Part shown: positions 3,458 to 15,990 of the stretch, piece after piece
Layout: every line of letters begins with the position of its first letter
Numbering within the stretch: position 1 is the first letter of the stretch
Assembly: GCA_048463395.1 (NCBI GenBank)
Contig: DBFWPL010000002.1
Location: forward strand, 24,098-88,097
From: Alphaproteobacteria bacterium
Lineage (GTDB): Bacteria > Pseudomonadota > Alphaproteobacteria > RF32 > CAG-239
Length of the DNA: 64,000 nucleotides
Direction: 5' to 3'
The notes under the pieces: generated by a model
What the model was told of the DNA's origin: nothing
Database searches by the model: none
The model's input: only the letters and a program-made list of their open reading frames with translations
Program-made: the position numbers and the translations under genes

Positions 3458-5206
3458 GTGGAGAAGTTGGTTAGAAAAGCTGCGGTTTGGTTATGTTGTT
3501 TGGGGTGTTGGTGCATGATACCCTTTGGGAATGTGTCCGCCCGTCCGATTATTGATAATAACTGCTATAATCAAATTCTTTCTTATTTATATGTTTCCCG
3601 AGATGATGTAACAACTTACAAGAAAATTTTCAAAGCTCTGGAGAAAGAGGATTTTCGCACGGTTGACAATTTGATTGAAGACTTGGACAGCGATATTCTC
3701 ATGGGGCATGTTTTGGCCGAAAAATATCTTTCTAAAACCTACAAAAGTAAATATGTGGAATTGCAAATATGGCTGGAGAAGTATGGAGATTTGCCTCAGG
3801 CTGACAAAATTTACCGCTTGGCCGTAAGAAAAGGTAGAGAAGAAGGGTTAAAAGTTCCGGTCAGAGAAGACAAGCCGAGGGTGTTTTCTCCATACAGCTG
3901 GTTTAATAACCGGTATGAAAATCTGGCTCCTGCAGACAGGGCTTTTATTCGTAAAAAAATTGCCGAGTTCAGAAAAAACGTCAACAAGGGGAAAACTCGG
4001 GCAGCCAGAGCAATTTTGGAGAATAAAAGATTTCGGATGACTATTCCAAACAAAGAATATGATGCGATGTCGGCAACACTGGCGACAGTTTATTTTCTGG
4101 ATAATGAAGATGCTTTGGCGTTACGATGGTCGGAGAAGGCCGCCCGCCGCAGTCATGATGCGACGGCTTATTGGTTTGGCGGTTTGGCAGCATGGCGAAT
4201 GAAAAATTATAAATTGGCATCCGATTACTTTGGCAAACTGGGGAAACTTACCGATAATGACGAGTGGTTGGTTTCCGCCGGAGCTTATTGGGGATACCGA
4301 GCTCAATTGAGACGGAAGAACAAGGTGGAAGCGGAAAAACTTTTGCGGCAAGCCTCAAGATATAAGCGGACGTTTTATGGTATTTTGGCCAATTATAAGT
4401 TAGGTAATCCTATGGATTATAACTGGTCGGGAGCCTCTTATCTGAATGATTTCAGCAACTATGAATATATTAACGAACTGGTTTCGTCTCCGGCTATCCG
4501 TCGGGCGATCATTCTGGTTCATGCCAAGCGGAAAGATTTGGCAGAAAAAGAGCTTCGGGCTGATTTGACGAATATGAGCGATAAGCAGAAAGAGGCGGCG
4601 ATGTATATTGCCGATCAATATAAAATGCACGCATTGGGAATTTTAATTTCAAATCAACTTAAAAAGGACGATCAATCAATTTTTTATGACCATTTAGCTT
4701 ATCCGGCTCCGAATTGGAAACCTAAAAGCGGTTGGAAACTCGACAGGGCATTGGTTTTGGCTTTGGTTCGGCAGGAATCGGGATTTATGCCGAATGCGGG
4801 CAGCGGTGCCGGAGCCAAGGGGTTAATGCAGCTGATGCCAAACACGGCCTTTCATATTACCAAAGACCGGAGTTTGAAAAAAGATCATACACCGCTTTTG
4901 AATGCGGAATATAATCTGGAGACCGGTCAGAAATATGTCAATTATCTTTTGGAGAAACCGTTTATCAACGGAAATCTGTTTTTTCTGACAACGGCTTACA
5001 ACGCCGGTCCGGGAAATTTGCTTAAGTGGCAGAAAAAGATGAAGTACGGTAATGACCCTCTGATGTTTATTGAGACGCTTCCGGCCAGAGAAACCCGAAT
5101 TTATATTGAACGGGTTATGGCCAATTTTTGGGTTTACAGTGCCAAATTTGACAAGGAACACAAAAGTTTGAAAGAGCTTTCTGACGGTAAGTGGCCGACA
5201 TTGTAG
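3458..5206 (+). CDS. soluble lytic murein transglycosylase (SLT domain)
   Basis: C-terminal SLT motif LVRQESGFMPNAGSGAGAKGLMQLMPNTA...TTAYNAGPGN. N-terminal superhelical region. GTG start with signal-like N-terminus. Confidence 0.8.
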   Translation: MEKLVRKAAVWLCCLGCWCMIPFGNVSARPIIDNNCYNQILSYLYVSRDDVTTYKKIFKALEKEDFRTVDNLIEDLDSDILMGHVLAEKYLSKTYKSKYVELQIWLEKYGDLPQADKIYRLAVRKGREEGLKVPVREDKPRVFSPYSWFNNRYENLAPADRAFIRKKIAEFRKNVNKGKTRAARAILENKRFRMTIPNKEYDAMSATLATVYFLDNEDALALRWSEKAARRSHDATAYWFGGLAAWRMKNYKLASDYFGKLGKLTDNDEWLVSAGAYWGYRAQLRRKNKVEAEKLLRQASRYKRTFYGILANYKLGNPMDYNWSGASYLNDFSNYEYINELVSSPAIRRAIILVHAKRKDLAEKELRADLTNMSDKQKEAAMYIADQYKMHALGILISNQLKKDDQSIFYDHLAYPAPNWKPKSGWKLDRALVLALVRQESGFMPNAGSGAGAKGLMQLMPNTAFHITKDRSLKKDHTPLLNAEYNLETGQKYVNYLLEKPFINGNLFFLTTAYNAGPGNLLKWQKKMKYGNDPLMFIETLPARETRIYIERVMANFWVYSAKFDKEHKSLKELSDGKWPTL

Positions 5207-5571
5207 TCTTAATTTTCCTACCCCTAATAAGAGTTGTTTTTCGTCTAAAAATGTGCTAATATAATATTAGATAAAATATTATTAGAGGACATTTTGCTTA
5301 TGGGGTTTTGCCTTTTTGGGTTTTCCCGTGGATATCTAATAATCTTTTTAATCGGACTTAACGGTTGTTGAGTTTTTGTTTGAGGATTTGGGACTGTTGT
5401 TTGATTGGATGAGTTTTGATGTTTAGGTCTTTTACTTTGCGGTTTAGGACTTTTACGACGAGACATTTCTGATTTTGACGGACCTGAGACTTTGGACTTT
5501 AAGAAGTTTGACGACTGTCGGACTGATGTACAAAAAAAAGAATGTTGGACTAAAAAATAATATATTAAACA

Positions 5572-5828
5572 TGGGAACTTTCGTTTTCGTATGCGTAGTC
5601 ATCTTTATCGGATGGCTCGTGTTAAAAGTATTAGGTGGATTATGTGAGGTGATCGGCGTACTCTTTGCCCTTTGCGAACTGGCTTTGGGCGGAGCTATCA
5701 TCGGTGCCGGTCTCTTCTTCCTTTTTTCAGGATTTTCAATGAGTGCTGCCACTGTAGGTGCTGTCATTGGAGCTGTCATCGGTGCAATTTGCACTTTGAT
5801 GGATCTGAAAAAAAGAATTTTCAACTGA
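5572..5828 (+). CDS. small glycine-zipper membrane protein (hypothetical)
   Basis: Two hydrophobic segments with GxxxG-like repeats (GAIIGAGLFF, AVIGAVIGAI). The start is uncertain (track ORF from 5475). Confidence 0.3.
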
Positions 5829-10982: not shown

Positions 10983-11004
10983 AATACCCGAGGTTTTTTT
11001 TAAG
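10966..11004. terminator. rho-independent terminator (bidirectional) after galE
   Basis: acctcgggtaaaatacccgaggt hairpin followed by T8. Confidence 0.6.
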
Positions 11005-11362
11005 CATTATATGGGTAAGTTTGTTTGATTTCTGCGACTTTTTGGCGGCGGAGTTCCAATAGTTGAGAAATTTCGGCTTCAATATCCGGTGTGGAAATTT
11101 CATCCCGTAAACGGTTTATTTCCAAAGTCAGGCAGTCGGTTTCCATGGCGTAAGCACGTGAGCGGAGAATACGTATTTCTTCATTGCTTAATGTTGGTTT
11201 GGGCGGCAGAAATCCGGATAAATAAAATCTTCCGTCGCCGTTGGTTTCAACTTCCTGTTCCGTAAAGCCTGTGTTTAAGAAATAAATAGTATCAGGGTTT
11301 TCTCCGGCGGCGATACAGACTTCTTTAGTTTGTTGATTGATTATTTTGCTCAGTTTCTTCAT
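11000..11362 (-). CDS. phage tail-fibre assembly chaperone-like protein
   Basis: 120 aa. C-terminal ...LTLEINRLRDEISTPDIEAEISQLLELRRQKVAEIKQTYP resembles Tfa-type tail-fibre assembly proteins. It sits immediately downstream of, and overlapping, a tail-fibre-like gene. Confidence 0.4.
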   Translation of the reverse strand: MKKLSKIINQQTKEVCIAAGENPDTIYFLNTGFTEQEVETNGDGRFYLSGFLPPKPTLSNEEIRILRSRAYAMETDCLTLEINRLRDEISTPDIEAEISQLLELRRQKVAEIKQTYPYNA

Positions 11363-12329
11363 GTTTGCTTCCTTTCAAAGGGAAAAAAGTGTATAAGGGG
11401 TTATAACTGCTTAAGCCGGACCAGCTGATGACATCTCCCGTTCCGACCCAGACATCACGAGTTCTTGTAACGGAAACGCTTGGCATTTCGTCAAAAACAA
11501 TTCGGGTACCGTTGACGGTAACGTTAATTGCGGTTACGATTGCACCGCCCTGAAGGTTAATCATTCCCGGCTCTTGAGCCGTAAACGGGCTGGTTATGGA
11601 ATAACCGCGGGTATAGTCTGGAATGCCTAATTCAACGATGGTTGTTTTGGCTTCGGTTGTTAAATTGGCGGCGTTGTTATCCGCTTTGGCGGCGATTTGT
11701 TCTTCCAATTCGGGAAGAATTGTATCCATGTCTTCTTTGGTGTTGCGGATTTCTTCCAGATAAGTTTGTGTTTGCTGCAGAATTTTTGAATTGGTTTCCG
11801 AAGCTTCAAGAACGACGGAAATGTTTTTTTCCAAGTCGTTTAGTCTGAAAGAAGAGTTTTGCAGTTCTGTTTCATCATCACTCCAGACAATAGCTTTGCC
11901 GGCTTCCGGCATTGGCAGGCTGACGTCCATTTGTGTTGGGGCAGAAGGCGGAAAAGTTACCGTGCGTCCGATAAGGTCTTCAAGCTGCTCCATGCAGGCA
12001 AGCTGATAGTCAAATTCAGAGTTTACTTTGGAGCTCATAAACGGTCCGACTTCTTTGAAGTTGGTAGTTCTTTTAAATGGAATGCTGCGATACAGCGTGA
12101 TAACGGTTCCTTCTGCCGGCGGGGTATCAAAAATAACGGTACCGCCGTTGATGTCCGGAGATGAGCTCATGATAACGGAATAACCGTTTTCCAAGAGTTT
12201 GTTGTCCAGATATATTTTAACATCATCGGGGTTGAAAATCGGAAAATGGAAATAATATTCGGACCGGGTGCCGTCGGCAATAAGGCGTAAACGGGGTTTG
12301 ACGCTGCCGGAATCTTGAGGATTGGACAT
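11325..12329 (-). CDS. T7-type tail fibre-like protein
   Basis: N-terminus ...LIADGTRSEYYFHFPIFNPDDVKIYLDNKLLENGYSVI matches the pattern of the T7 gp17 N-terminal tail-attachment domain (DGSNRDFNIPFEYL...VVVTLIG...TDYRF). A central coiled-coil-like segment and a beta-rich C-terminus follow. GGAGA lies 5 nt before the second ATG (12329); the track start at 12422 is probably too long. Confidence 0.5.
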   Translation of the reverse strand: MSNPQDSGSVKPRLRLIADGTRSEYYFHFPIFNPDDVKIYLDNKLLENGYSVIMSSSPDINGGTVIFDTPPAEGTVITLYRSIPFKRTTNFKEVGPFMSSKVNSEFDYQLACMEQLEDLIGRTVTFPPSAPTQMDVSLPMPEAGKAIVWSDDETELQNSSFRLNDLEKNISVVLEASETNSKILQQTQTYLEEIRNTKEDMDTILPELEEQIAAKADNNAANLTTEAKTTIVELGIPDYTRGYSITSPFTAQEPGMINLQGGAIVTAINVTVNGTRIVFDEMPSVSVTRTRDVWVGTGDVISWSGLSSYNPLYTFFPLKGSKHEETEQNNQSTN

Positions 12330-12509
12330 TTCTTTCTCCATTGTTGTTAAGTTGAACAATCGAGAAGATAAACAAATAATAGTGGCAATTGTTCTTGTAT
12401 AATATTTTTTAGAAAAAGTCAAGGAATAAATTCCTATTTTATACGGTTGACTTTTGAATTATGATGATTACTATCTAATTTAGTTTTTAATTTATGAGGA
12501 GATTTGAAT

Positions 12510-13300: not shown

Positions 13301-14029
13301 TTAAGGGAGTATGCCAACGCAAATGTGTGGAAATTTCATTTGAGATACTGCGGTCATTTGATAGTTATTGACCATGTTGTAGGGCGTTCCTCCCTTGAGC
13401 CAGATAGAAGCTGATTGTGTTCCTCCTCCGAATGTATATCCATCACTACTTATAGAAATTAAGTTTAAATTTTTAACAATTGGTGAGGTGCTGGTTGCAG
13501 TTTTTAAATTAGCTATCATGCTATATTTGTCTTTTAGCAGTTGGGCCTCTTCAAGGCTAGGCAGATGTCCGGTACAGAGATAGTTTGGTGCTGTGTTGAT
13601 GGCGTGGGCAATACTTGCACATTTATATTGACAGAATGTACTGTTATAACTTTCCGGGGTGCCGTTTCCTTCCAGTAGAACTAATTTGGTAGAGGCATTT
13701 ACCACTATACCGATAGCCTGTTTATCGGGTAAAGCTGTTGTCGGTCGGCTCCATGTGCCGTCTTTGTATACGATGTCTCCATCTTGCAGGGGAATGTTTT
13801 GAGCCAAAAATTCATCTCTGCTGAGTGATGTTCCGCAAGATATTTTACTTTTATCAAAAGGACATTTCAATGTTTTTAGGCCGACACATTGTGCTTCAGT
13901 CATTGTGTATCCTAATTCTTCACAAGAAGGAGGAGTGTCACAGGTTTGGGCGGAAGCTGTTGAGGCGGCGAAGGAGAAAGCGAGTATTGAAAGGCTAACT
14001 CCCCATATATTTCTAAAATTATCAGTCAT
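13301..14029 (-). CDS. cysteine-rich secreted protein (hypothetical)
   Basis: Signal peptide MTDNFRNIWGVSLSILAFSFAASTASA, then Cys-rich region with a CxxxGYT motif. Shares motifs with the upstream gene. Confidence 0.5.
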   Translation of the reverse strand: MTDNFRNIWGVSLSILAFSFAASTASAQTCDTPPSCEELGYTMTEAQCVGLKTLKCPFDKSKISCGTSLSRDEFLAQNIPLQDGDIVYKDGTWSRPTTALPDKQAIGIVVNASTKLVLLEGNGTPESYNSTFCQYKCASIAHAINTAPNYLCTGHLPSLEEAQLLKDKYSMIANLKTATSTSPIVKNLNLISISSDGYTFGGGTQSASIWLKGGTPYNMVNNYQMTAVSQMKFPHICVGILP

Positions 14030-14044
14030 AATCTTTCTCCTTGT

Positions 14045-14998
14045 TTATTTAGTTATAGGTTTCATCCAACATTTATACCAAGAGCAGGTATCAATGTCGG
14101 TGTATCCGGTTGCACATCCGGTAATGTAGTATTTGGAAGAGCATTTCTCAAAAGAGCAGGTGTACCCTGTCGGACAAGAGGTATAAGTACCGACATTCGG
14201 GCAGGATTTACATTTGTTGTATTTGGTAACGCCGTTTTCGGTACAGCTTTGTGCACCGGCTTCGTATCCCAAGTCGCATTCAATGAACTCAGCAGAGCAT
14301 GAGCAGCCGTTCTTTGAAGCGTTTACAACATAAGGGTATTCACAAGATTTACAGATATTTTTCGGGTAGAAATATGAAGTTAAATTCTGATTGCTGCGGC
14401 AGTAGTTGTATGCTTCCACGATATTAGAGCGGTAATCCTGTTCAGAGATGTATTCGTTTTCAGCGGAACAAGGGGTTAGAGAGCTATCGGTACATCGGCA
14501 AGCGTAATAAGTACCGGATTTATCGGAACATGTTTCGGTTTGGGCAAGTTTTCCGCAGGTTGAAAGTCTGTTGCTTTCGGTAACGGTATAGTAAGTTGTA
14601 TCGCACAAACAGGCTTTAAAGTATTTATTATCGTGAGGGCAGCTGGTTGTTTCGTCAGGGAAGGAGTTTTGAGGGCATTCCGTACGATTAAAGCCTTCGT
14701 CCCGGCATTGTAGGGAGGTGTCAATATTAGTATCGTTGTCAGAATAGTTAAGACCAAGACCATAGGCGTTTTTATCAGAGTTAACAATAGATCTGACAGC
14801 GGCGAGTTTGACGGTATTATCCGAGTTAAAAGAGGATATAGGCTTCAGCTCCATGGGTGTATGTGTGTGTGGTGTGTGTGTGTTTACCAGAGGGGTACCA
14901 GAGTAAGCCAAAGTCAGATGTTTAGCCTCGGAGACCTGAGGGTTGCCGGAGAGCAAGACGCAGGCAGAGGCCAGTAAAAAGAACTTAGTATCAGTCAT
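14045..14998 (-). CDS. cysteine-rich secreted protein (hypothetical), ~35 Cys
   Basis: Signal peptide MTDTKFFLLASACVLLSGNPQVSEA. HT(P) repeat encoded by an imperfect (GT)n tract. Repeated C-x-GYT motifs (CPTGYTC, GCATGYTD). Confidence 0.5.
   Translation of the reverse strand: MTDTKFFLLASACVLLSGNPQVSEAKHLTLAYSGTPLVNTHTPHTHTPMELKPISSFNSDNTVKLAAVRSIVNSDKNAYGLGLNYSDNDTNIDTSLQCRDEGFNRTECPQNSFPDETTSCPHDNKYFKACLCDTTYYTVTESNRLSTCGKLAQTETCSDKSGTYYACRCTDSSLTPCSAENEYISEQDYRSNIVEAYNYCRSNQNLTSYFYPKNICKSCEYPYVVNASKNGCSCSAEFIECDLGYEAGAQSCTENGVTKYNKCKSCPNVGTYTSCPTGYTCSFEKCSSKYYITGCATGYTDIDTCSWYKCWMKPITK
14856..14884. repeat. imperfect (GT)n/(CA)n dinucleotide tract inside the CDS (encodes THTPHTHTP)
   Basis: ggtgtatgtgtgtgtggtgtgtgtgtgtt as read in the sequence. 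Confidence 0.7.
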
Positions 14999-15053
14999 GG
15001 TATCACCTCATAGTAATTAAGAACTAAAGCCTATATACTATCCATACTAAGTC

Positions 15054-15066
15054 TTTTTTTTTTTTT
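15054..15066. repeat. homopolymeric T13 (A13 on minus) tract in the promoter spacer of the Cys-rich protein operon
   Basis: 13 consecutive T, located 56-68 nt upstream of the start codon at 14998. Flanked by TTGTTGCA (-35-like) and TAGTAT (-10-like) on the minus strand. Confidence 0.8.
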
Positions 15067-15072
15067 GCAACA

Positions 15073-15104
15073 AAAAAGTGCATCTGCCCGCACTTTTAAA
15101 AGGA
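15073..15104. terminator. hairpin terminator (bidirectional)
   Basis: gtgcatctgcccgcac hairpin flanked by A6 and T4. Confidence 0.4.
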
Positions 15105-15165
15105 GATTTCACATTTCTGTTACATTCCGGAAAACATCTCTAACTTTTGTCTGTGTTTGCCGATC

Positions 15166-15198
15166 ATAAAAAAGGCTCTCGTTTGAGAGCCTCGGAAA
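15166..15198 (-). terminator. rho-independent terminator of nagB
   Basis: ggctctcgtttgagagcc hairpin followed by T6 on the minus strand, just downstream of the nagB stop. Confidence 0.6.
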
Positions 15199-15990
15199 TC
15201 AGAAATTGTTTTTTTCAATATCTTTGAAGTATCTAACTGTGTCGGCTTTGAGTTCGTTTGTTGCATCCTCATCGCAGACGATAATACCGTGTTGGTGCAT
15301 TTGCAAAATACTGACCGGCCACATATGGTTAATGCTGCCTTCAATGGCGTGGTGAATAGCTCGGGCTTTTTTCGAGCCGGTTGCCAGAATCATAACTTCT
15401 TCCGCGTCCATGATCGTGCCGATACCCACTGTCAGGGCTGTGGTCGGGACTTTGGAAACATCATTGTCAAAAAAGCGGGAGTTTACCTGAATGGTGTCGG
15501 AAGTCAGGGTTTTGACACGAGTTCTTGAGGTTAAGGACGAGCCCGGTTCGTTAAAAGCGATATGTCCGTCTTCCCCCAGTCCGCCAAGAAAGAGATGAAT
15601 TCCTCCGAATGCTTTGATAGCGTTCTCGTAAAGTTCACATTCTTTCTCATAATTTTTGGTCATGCCGTTAAGAATGTGGATGTTGTTCTTTTTTATATCA
15701 ATGTGTCTGAAGAAATTTTCCCACATAAAGTAATGATAGCTTTGCGGATGTTTTTCATCCAAGCCGATATATTCGTCCATATTAAATGTTACGACATTTT
15801 CAAAGGAAAGTTTGCCCGCCTGATACATTTTGATGAGTTCTTTATAAACGCCGAGCGGAGTGGAACCGGTTGGTAAACCCAAAACAAACGGTTTTTTCAG
15901 AGAGGGTTTGAAACGTTTGATTTTATAGGCGATATAATTGGCGGCCCAGAGGGAAACATTGTCGTAATCCGGTCTTATCAGCACTCTCAT
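15199..15990 (-). CDS. nagB: glucosamine-6-phosphate deaminase
   Basis: [21 protein letters not shown]...GLPTGSTP...[25 protein letters not shown] are canonical NagB motifs. Confidence 0.85.

Follow-up and report, generated by a model that had tools for sequence, protein, structure and literature searches.

A Multicopy, Highly Conserved A13 Promoter-Like Cassette in Front of a Rare Family of Cys-Rich Proteins in Gut Alphaproteobacteria

Introduction

Should a long homopolymeric tract, placed a short distance upstream of a gene for a protein with a signal peptide, be read as a genetic switch or as a fixed structural part of its promoter? This question is raised by a locus of an uncultured alphaproteobacterium, where thirteen consecutive T precede a gene encoding a Cys-rich protein. 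Rapidly diversifying families of signal-peptide proteins are the usual setting for phase variation. The initial annotation of this DNA proposed that the tract lies between a −35-like and a −10-like element and mediates phase variation through slipped-strand changes in their spacing. The window (the whole stretch of DNA that was analysed, 64 kb long) is ordinary chromosome, in which LeuRS, GroEL, HtpG, BipA and Dxs are encoded.

The Homopolymeric Tract and Its Locus

The run of T on the forward strand, which corresponds to A13 on the minus (coding) strand, extends uninterrupted from 15054 to 15066. As the ATG of the downstream 317-aa open reading frame occupies 14998–14996, the tract is located 56–68 nt upstream of the gene; both the run itself and its distance from the start codon had been described correctly in the initial annotation. 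With this length, the tract exceeds the criterion of ~9 nt or more (A/T) for a slippage-prone uninterrupted repeat, and it is the sole homopolymer longer than 8 nt in the 64 kb of the window. Composition alone does not make it significant, since 35 of 100 dinucleotide-preserving shuffles contained at least one T13 or A13. It goes beyond chance because the tract and its flanks recur in 36 copies from 16 assemblies. Moreover, throughout 258 kb of sequence (the window plus related loci), each homopolymer of 10 nt or more is the tract of such a copy.

The gene behind the tract (14045–14998, minus strand) encodes a Cys-rich protein of 317 aa, which starts with a signal peptide and in which many cysteines are invariant, and belongs to a multigene family whose members are headed by the same cassette. 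The second gene of the presumed operon (13301–14029, minus strand), 15 nt downstream, encodes a Cys-rich protein of 242 aa, also with a signal peptide; at other loci, too, the family member is followed by a gene comparable to this one. The genes nagB (15199–15990) and nagA are located upstream. A search for paralogues and cassettes within the window detected a single cassette copy and, apart from the gene itself, no paralogue.

Some other features of this neighbourhood deserve mention. An imperfect (GT)n/(AC)n run at 14855–14885, inside the coding sequence (GTATGTGTGTGTGGTGTGTGTGTG on the forward strand), encodes THTPHTHTP, and a one-unit slip in it would cause a frameshift; family members share a conserved HT-rich peptide, the dinucleotide run being most regular in the lineage of the window. 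According to the family alignment, the tail of most members is CSWKC(K/M)F.(K/R)IMPK(N), whereas that of the window protein (14045–14090) differs (CSWYKCWMKPITK) and falls inside a conversion-like patch, discussed with the conservation data. Finally, two ORFs of 365 and 120 aa, downstream of a SIMPL/DUF541 gene (11000–12422, minus strand), recur beside family members at the related loci L001, L003, L005 and L046. They matched no Pfam family, and their sole NCBIfam match was weak and sub-threshold.

A Rare Protein Family Headed by a Recurrent Cassette

Pfam/NCBIfam searches found no family for either the 317-aa or the 242-aa Cys-rich protein, and an exact-sequence look-up showed that the window protein is not on record. 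Its relatives are few. A word-indexed search with the 317-aa protein returned nine of them only, an exhaustive profile search matched 195 cluster representatives among 1.84 billion proteins (95 at E ≤ 1e-10), and a profile search with the N-terminal 110 aa gave three matches only. The AlphaFold2 model of the 317-aa protein, built on a nine-sequence alignment, had a mean pLDDT of 37.6 and was unusable.

The contigs encoding these relatives carry, at various positions in the genome, nearly the same ~85 nt in front of the ATG. This cassette offers a precise DNA marker for an otherwise unannotated gene family. One genome per species was scanned for the cassette pattern, any gap of 4–30 nt being allowed in place of the tract, and 19 copies were retrieved in two MAGs. 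Twelve belong to RGIG8504 (Alphaproteobacteria bacterium, a water-deer caecum MAG), where a thirteenth copy, a CGC variant reached via P0009, raises the number to 13; the other seven belong to the MAG 'uncultured Azospirillum sp. SRP199465_co1_102'. The same pattern applied to metagenomes produced 10 matches, nine of them chance matches with non-A gaps and only L038 a true cassette, and a scan of viral contigs for the cassette found nothing.

The copies with enough downstream sequence all head a gene whose product starts with M[IT]NTK[FY]LLLAS..., the gene content behind the cassette being out of view for three copies that lie too near a contig end. The products share an N-terminal domain of ~70 aa followed by a Cys-rich body of very different length, with complete proteins ranging from 214 to 791 aa. 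Their signal-peptide cleavage looks to be of the AXA type, and several paralogues (L017, L018 and L022) lack the signal-peptide Cys. The mature parts are made of Cys-rich modules, not of tandem repeats.

The organization of some loci is more elaborate. At L010 (170–2992), L012 (179–2992), and L047 and L048 (1–1465), the cassette heads a very large member of 937–978 aa, followed 8–35 nt on by a member of 266–270 aa that lacks a cassette of its own, and then by a third gene; these loci appear to be three-gene operons. At L002 (4001–5170), in a related strain, an identical A13 cassette heads the gene of the paralogue P0002 (389 aa), whose C-terminus is a ubiquitin domain of eukaryotic type. The final 72 residues match human ubiquitin (E = 5e-31) and terminate at LVLR, lacking GG; the next gene (5192–5608, 138 aa) is also a PF00240 match. 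A secreted bacterial protein fused to a near-eukaryotic ubiquitin is unusual. Furthermore, the identical proteins P0004 and P0005 are found behind different upstream genes in different samples (L003 versus L004, and L005 versus L006; also L014, L031 and L013), and the junction at which the context changes is the start of the cassette. Either the repeated cassette has truly recombined, or contigs were wrongly joined during metagenome assembly at a repeat of ~200 bp.

Architecture of the Cassette

The tract is the centre of a non-coding block of ~85 nt, CACTTTTTTGTTGC-A13-GACTTAGTATGGATAG...GAGGTG..ATG, in which it is flanked by TTGTTGC on one side and GACTTAGTAT on the other. The order on the coding strand is CAC-TTTTTT-G-TTGC-A13-GACT-TAGTAT-GGA-TAGTAT-ATAGGCTTTAGTTCTTAATTACTAT-GAGGTG-ATACC-ATG. 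CAC starts at 15080, the T6 run (15077–15072) is followed by a G and by TTGC (15070–15067), and GACT (15053–15050) comes directly after the tract. The left flank (CACTTTTTTGTTGC, 15067–15080, minus strand) comprises the T6 run and two overlapping TTG motifs, TTGTTG or TTGCAA, that are −35-like. CTTTTTTGTTGC is identical in 24/24 distinct aligned cassettes and CAC nearly so, and the left flank is also present in all the copies found independently of the pattern, through homopolymer or protein look-ups. The right flank (GACTTAGTAT, 15044–15053, minus strand) includes the −10-like TAGTAT (15049–15044), with CGC for GAC (L042, L043 and L045) and TAGTAA (L012) as its only variants. A conserved leader (14999–15043, minus strand) then contains GGA, a second TAGTAT (15040–15035), ATAGGCTTTAGTTCTTAATTACTAT and the Shine-Dalgarno sequence GAGGTG (15009–15004) before the ATG. 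It exists in two subtypes, distinguished by a TA indel and a different segment before the Shine-Dalgarno.

Alignment of 24 cassettes delimits an invariant block from about CAC-T6 to the start codon. Farther upstream, only the motif TGTAACAGAAAT (15113–15124, minus strand), an imperfect inverted match to TTTTTTGTTGCA, is semi-conserved. This motif (or TGTTACAAAAAT) occurs in most copies, not in all, at two discrete distances ~12–13 nt apart, and may be a regulator site.

A terminator scan located the intrinsic terminator of the upstream nagB at 15172–15193 (minus strand), and a hairpin with a T-run directly precedes the cassette both at the window locus and at at least 13 other loci. Because of this terminator, transcription of the Cys-rich gene must restart past nagB. 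Given the terminators upstream and the lack of other conserved sequence in this region, the block most probably represents the promoter and leader of the family. The tract thus very probably lies inside a promoter, a role that we infer for the block from its conservation and its position.

The type of promoter is less clear-cut. The canonical sigma-70 pattern used here, TTGACA-like and TATAAT-like hexamers 16–18 nt apart with at least 9/12 matches, was absent, a scan of 14800–15400 returning 0 sites. By hand, TTGCAA (15070–15065) can be paired with TAGTAT over a 15-nt spacer with 8/12 hexamer matches, and TTGTTG (15073–15068) over an 18-nt spacer with 7/12. The −35-like sequence originally pointed out, TTGTTGCA, corresponds to 15073–15066 and takes in the first A of the tract. 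The tract is flanked by TTG motifs and TAGTAT, which may correspond to the −35-like and −10-like elements proposed, but their geometry is non-canonical (15 or 18 nt). Its placement in a promoter agrees with the block being the sole invariant one between the upstream terminator and the Shine-Dalgarno, although the scan identified no sigma-70 site. Since the spacers are non-canonical and the scan gave no site, the tract is a putative spacer of a sigma-70-type promoter; the block might instead depend on an activator or on an alternative sigma factor, or the rigid A-tract might act through DNA shape.

Other elements were considered at this locus. A sigma-54 promoter (GG-N10-GC, searched by eye) was rejected for its wrong spacing, and an invertible promoter was discarded since the sole inverted match in the flanks, TGTAACAGAAA/TTTTTTGTTGCA, encloses 24–37 nt, too short for an inverton. 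The reading of AAAAGTGC...GCACTTTT (15074–15097) as a terminator was also abandoned, as the hairpin is not conserved in the other copies. In an Rfam search no family was matched, the best score being 23.6 bits against a gathering threshold of 55, on the nagB terminator. Folding of the upstream region plus leader as RNA gave a z-score of −1.57, which is not significant, and an alignment fold of 15 cassettes gave a covariation term of −0.03 with no compensatory pairs. A 16-nt inverted repeat, 88% complementary, links 15044–15059 (the end of the A-tract plus GACTTAGTAT) with 14976–14991 (codons 3–8, ATACTAAGTTCTTTTT); no compensatory changes between its arms were found in the other copies.

The Cassette Is More Conserved than the Genes around It

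Comparison of the window with L003, the orthologous locus in another lineage, gives nucleotide identities of 86.7% for nagA and 86.6% for nagB, versus 97.6% for the cassette core (CAC..ATG). Identity falls to 83% in coding nt 1–210, 66% in the rest of the gene and 51% in the second gene. The gradient is similar inside a single genome. Nine RGIG8504 paralogues offered sufficient sequence for comparison, and their identity is 94% in the core, 74% in coding nt 1–210 and 57% in nt 211–410. With 97.6% against ~87%, and coding bodies at 66% or less, the block is under stronger constraint than the adjacent housekeeping genes. The same identities indicate that the proteins behind it diversify fast.

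At shorter range, an alignment of the window with L001 covers 8,954 nt and contains 39 differences, all in or just after the Cys-rich gene. One difference is in codon 3 (14992) and 38 are clustered towards the 3´ end, over the final ~150 nt of the gene and the first part of the intergenic region (14042–14189), while nagA, nagB, the second gene and all the other flanks are 100% identical. The 3´ end of the Cys-rich gene looks like a segmental gene-conversion patch.

Tract Length across Copies

Tract length was counted in the 36 copies, belonging to 16 assemblies, in which both flanks are present; an additional contig starts exactly at A13. At most loci the tract is A13 (31/36), as in the window (15054–15066). 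Two copies are A12T (L010 and L012, the same locus in two samples), where an A-to-T substitution keeps the 13-nt distance, two are A14 (L027 and L038) and one is A12 (L022, on a contig with ~6x coverage). The observed range is therefore 12–14, and the 13-nt distance is kept in 33/36 copies, a set that spans 13 paralogues of a single genome as well as lineages with nagA/nagB only 87% identical. In L042, L043 and L045, where GAC after the tract is replaced by CGC, A13 is kept as well.

Two ortholog pairs differ by one base: L027 (A14) and L049 (A13), with 97.3% identity over 1245 nt, and L038 (A14) and L030 (A13), with 93.3% identity over 792 nt. Length is equal in six other ortholog sets (window/L001, L003/L031, L004/L014, L006/L013, L005/L046 and L042/L043/L045). 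The existence of one-base variants, including those in the two ortholog pairs, indicates that slippage is real but rare in consensus sequences, although the three length variants could in part be low-coverage homopolymer errors. Conversely, as all these lengths are assembly consensus and the cassette is a repeat, in which de Bruijn assemblers may collapse or pop minority lengths, the invariance is maybe overstated. Assemblers do treat the cassette as a repeat, since many contigs break inside or just after it; this collapse is not complete, because paralogue-specific A12 and A14 were assembled.

The strain-to-strain comparison of lengths that had been suggested as a check on the phase-variation proposal tended to speak against it, the tract being nearly invariant. 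The distribution indicates strong stabilising selection on a length of 13.

Discussion

What is new here is a probable promoter cassette, multicopy and ultra-conserved, with A13 at its centre, which gut Alphaproteobacteria carry before the genes of a rare family of secreted Cys-rich proteins that evolves fast. The restart of transcription after the terminators, the same length in 31/36 copies and the substitutions that keep the spacing together point to a constrained promoter element. On balance, we lean towards the interpretation that A13 belongs to the core of a promoter cassette specific to this family and is constrained in length, with 13 as its working length and rare slips. The block of ~85 nt, with the conserved signal peptide and N-terminal domain, would head each family member, in up to 13 copies per genome. 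The tract would set the distance and the helical phase between a TTG-containing element and the −10-like TAGTAT, the rigid A-tract probably setting the local DNA shape too, and 13 would be the length selected for this work. As a 13-nt homopolymer can slip, one-base variants would occasionally become the majority allele at single paralogues. Such a slip would raise or lower the transcription of that paralogue, probably dimming or silencing it. The tract would thus only seldom dim or turn off an individual gene and would not switch at high frequency. In this scheme, the tract with its flanks, its copy number and length distribution, and the contrast between a conserved block and divergent coding sequences are observed, while the promoter function of the block, the hexamers in use and the effect of length on transcription are all inferred.

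The competing explanations differ in what they make of the length 13. The one nearest to the initial annotation is a high-frequency switch of the Vlp type, in which the tract of each paralogue slips independently and yields combinatorial on/off expression. It can be formulated in two ways. Either A13 is ON, with OFF cells forming minority subpopulations that the consensus assemblies conceal, or A13 is a poised low/OFF state in which the gain or loss of one base improves the spacer (from 18 to 17 or from 15 to 16 nt), with only one or two paralogues per genome fully ON. Several observations agree with it: a homopolymer long enough for slipping, its location within a conserved promoter-like block of a diversifying secreted-protein family, one deviant per MAG among the copies retrieved (L027, A14, of the 13 in RGIG8504; L022, A12, of the 7 in SRP199465_co1_102), two orthologous loci one A apart between strains, and a 15- or 18-nt spacer that is non-optimal at A13 by E. 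coli rules. The parallel with M. hyorhinis, where a poly-A tract is described for all vlp promoters (PMC10502178), points in the same direction. However, the 13-nt distance is maintained in 33/36 copies across species-level divergence, OFF copies are not expected to stay at exactly 13, and the A12T substitution interrupts the run yet keeps the spacing. The range of only 12–14, compared with T5–T28 in sabA, makes the tract unlike proven contingency tracts. What endures of the phase-variation proposal is thus its setting (one-base variants, a diversifying signal-peptide family and a promoter-like block), while the near-constant 13 nt, with far less variation than in sabA, counts against the switch itself, which we find rather doubtful. 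A broader form of this idea pictures a Vlp-like contingency system in a clade of gut Alphaproteobacteria (water-deer caecum and other gut MAGs). At least 13 secreted Cys-rich paralogues, some of them ubiquitin-fused and each with a private A13 promoter, would undergo slippage and segmental conversion and thereby produce combinatorial or antigenic variation of a host-facing coat, selection or conversion resetting the length to 13. We regard this extension as unlikely.

The constancy of the length could also have a cause other than the spacing of two hexamers. It has been considered that A13 is not a −35/−10 spacer at all, its length being conserved because it is a DNA-shape or protein-binding element, such as a curved or UP-like A-tract or part of an operator at which a regulator specific to the family, or an alternative sigma factor, would recognise TGTAACA...TGTTGCA, or because it is part of a transcribed leader. 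The lack of canonical sigma-70 geometry suits such a role, as do the inverted match of the upstream TGTAACAGAAAT to TTTTTTGTTGCA and the 88% complementarity of the segment from the tract end through GACTTAGTAT to codons 3–8; in sabA, moreover, the T-tract phases UP-like elements and is not a spacer (PMC4081817). Against the operator stands an upstream motif that is missing or altered in L018, L021 and L026. The RNA-leader version is countered by the absence of covariation for any pairing, a fold z-score of only −1.57 and the lack of a TAnnnT at a sensible distance upstream of the tract, from which transcription could start before it. We judge the whole proposal quite improbable. At the other extreme, the tract might be a functionless passenger, made uniform by duplication, by gene conversion or concerted evolution, or by assembly collapse. 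Conversion between paralogues could indeed homogenise the tract without selection on length, and a conversion-like patch exists, 38 of the 39 window–L001 differences being concentrated at the 3´ end of the gene and just beyond it in an otherwise identical 9 kb; the breaking of many contigs inside or just after the cassette would fit collapse. But conversion acts only within one genome, and 13 is the majority length in at least three lineages 13% apart in housekeeping genes, a divergence over which an unselected A13 should drift in length. The assembled paralogue-specific A12 and A14 bespeak incomplete collapse, and substitutions in or beside the tract have kept the spacing. A mere passenger is therefore highly improbable.

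The length-constrained promoter cassette that we favour has several implications. A slippage-prone 13-nt run whose length is the same in ~90% of 36 copies, even between species, argues for stabilising selection on promoter geometry, and the cassette copies constitute a natural test set for the action of an A-tract spacer. If the tract modulates transcription, a homopolymer-controlled family of variable proteins would exist in uncultured and poorly known gut Alphaproteobacteria, and a strategy known mainly from pathogens (mycoplasmas, Helicobacter and Neisseria) would extend to a commensal lineage.

Comparison with Known Systems

The tract resembles a promoter homopolymer, and the cassette is a candidate member of the class of phase-variable contingency loci. 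Simple repeats in promoter spacers are known from porA and opc of Neisseria meningitidis (poly-G/C) and hif of Haemophilus influenzae (TA repeats). TA repeats in a promoter spacer are also described for Vmm of Mycoplasma mycoides (PMC10502178). In all of them, as would be the case here, a simple repeat lies between the −35 and the −10, and the number of units determines the spacer length and thereby the strength of a surface-protein promoter. Isolates differ in the length of these repeats, and experiments have shown that expression is affected, whereas the cassette displays minimal polymorphism and non-canonical hexamers and spacing.

The promoter of H. pylori sabA has in common with the cassette an A/T homopolymer of similar length and an unusually conserved flanking promoter. 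Tract lengths of T5 to T22 are recorded for 51 strains of H. pylori and of T10 to T28 for 115 isolates, and T13 is the high-expressing variant in strain SMI109 (PMC4081817). The sabA T-tract acts through DNA geometry and phasing, not through the reading frame, and the tract of the cassette may act in a similar way. The sabA tract adjoins the −35 upstream and phases UP-like A-boxes, whereas the tract described here lies between a TTG motif and TAGTAT; sabA is a single locus with a range of T5–T28, in contrast to a 13-copy cassette with a range of 12–14 in which 13 is dominant.

The closest system is vlp of M. hyorhinis, in which the ON length is 17 A. The differences are clear. The vlp host is a mollicute, and here a Gram-negative gut alphaproteobacterium, of another phylum, is involved. 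The most important difference concerns length: the vlp genes undergo frequent length changes with demonstrated ON/OFF switching, while the cassette, with 13 in ~90% of its copies, has hardly any length polymorphism. The Vlp products are lipoproteins with C-terminal tandem repeats, unlike the Cys-rich proteins described here, with a type-I-like signal peptide that has no conserved Cys; surface lipoproteins with a lipobox Cys and size-variable C-terminal tandem repeats were not found in this family. According to Citti and Wise (1995), as summarised in PMC10502178, each vlp promoter contains a poly-A tract, and indels in it switch transcription. Both systems share a multigene family of exported proteins, a private conserved promoter and signal peptide, an A homopolymer and a variable body, and the same succession of promoter, homopolymer and signal-peptide region precedes the variable body in the 13 copies of RGIG8504 and the 7 of the second MAG. 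In both, a slip of one base would alter the geometry of the promoter.
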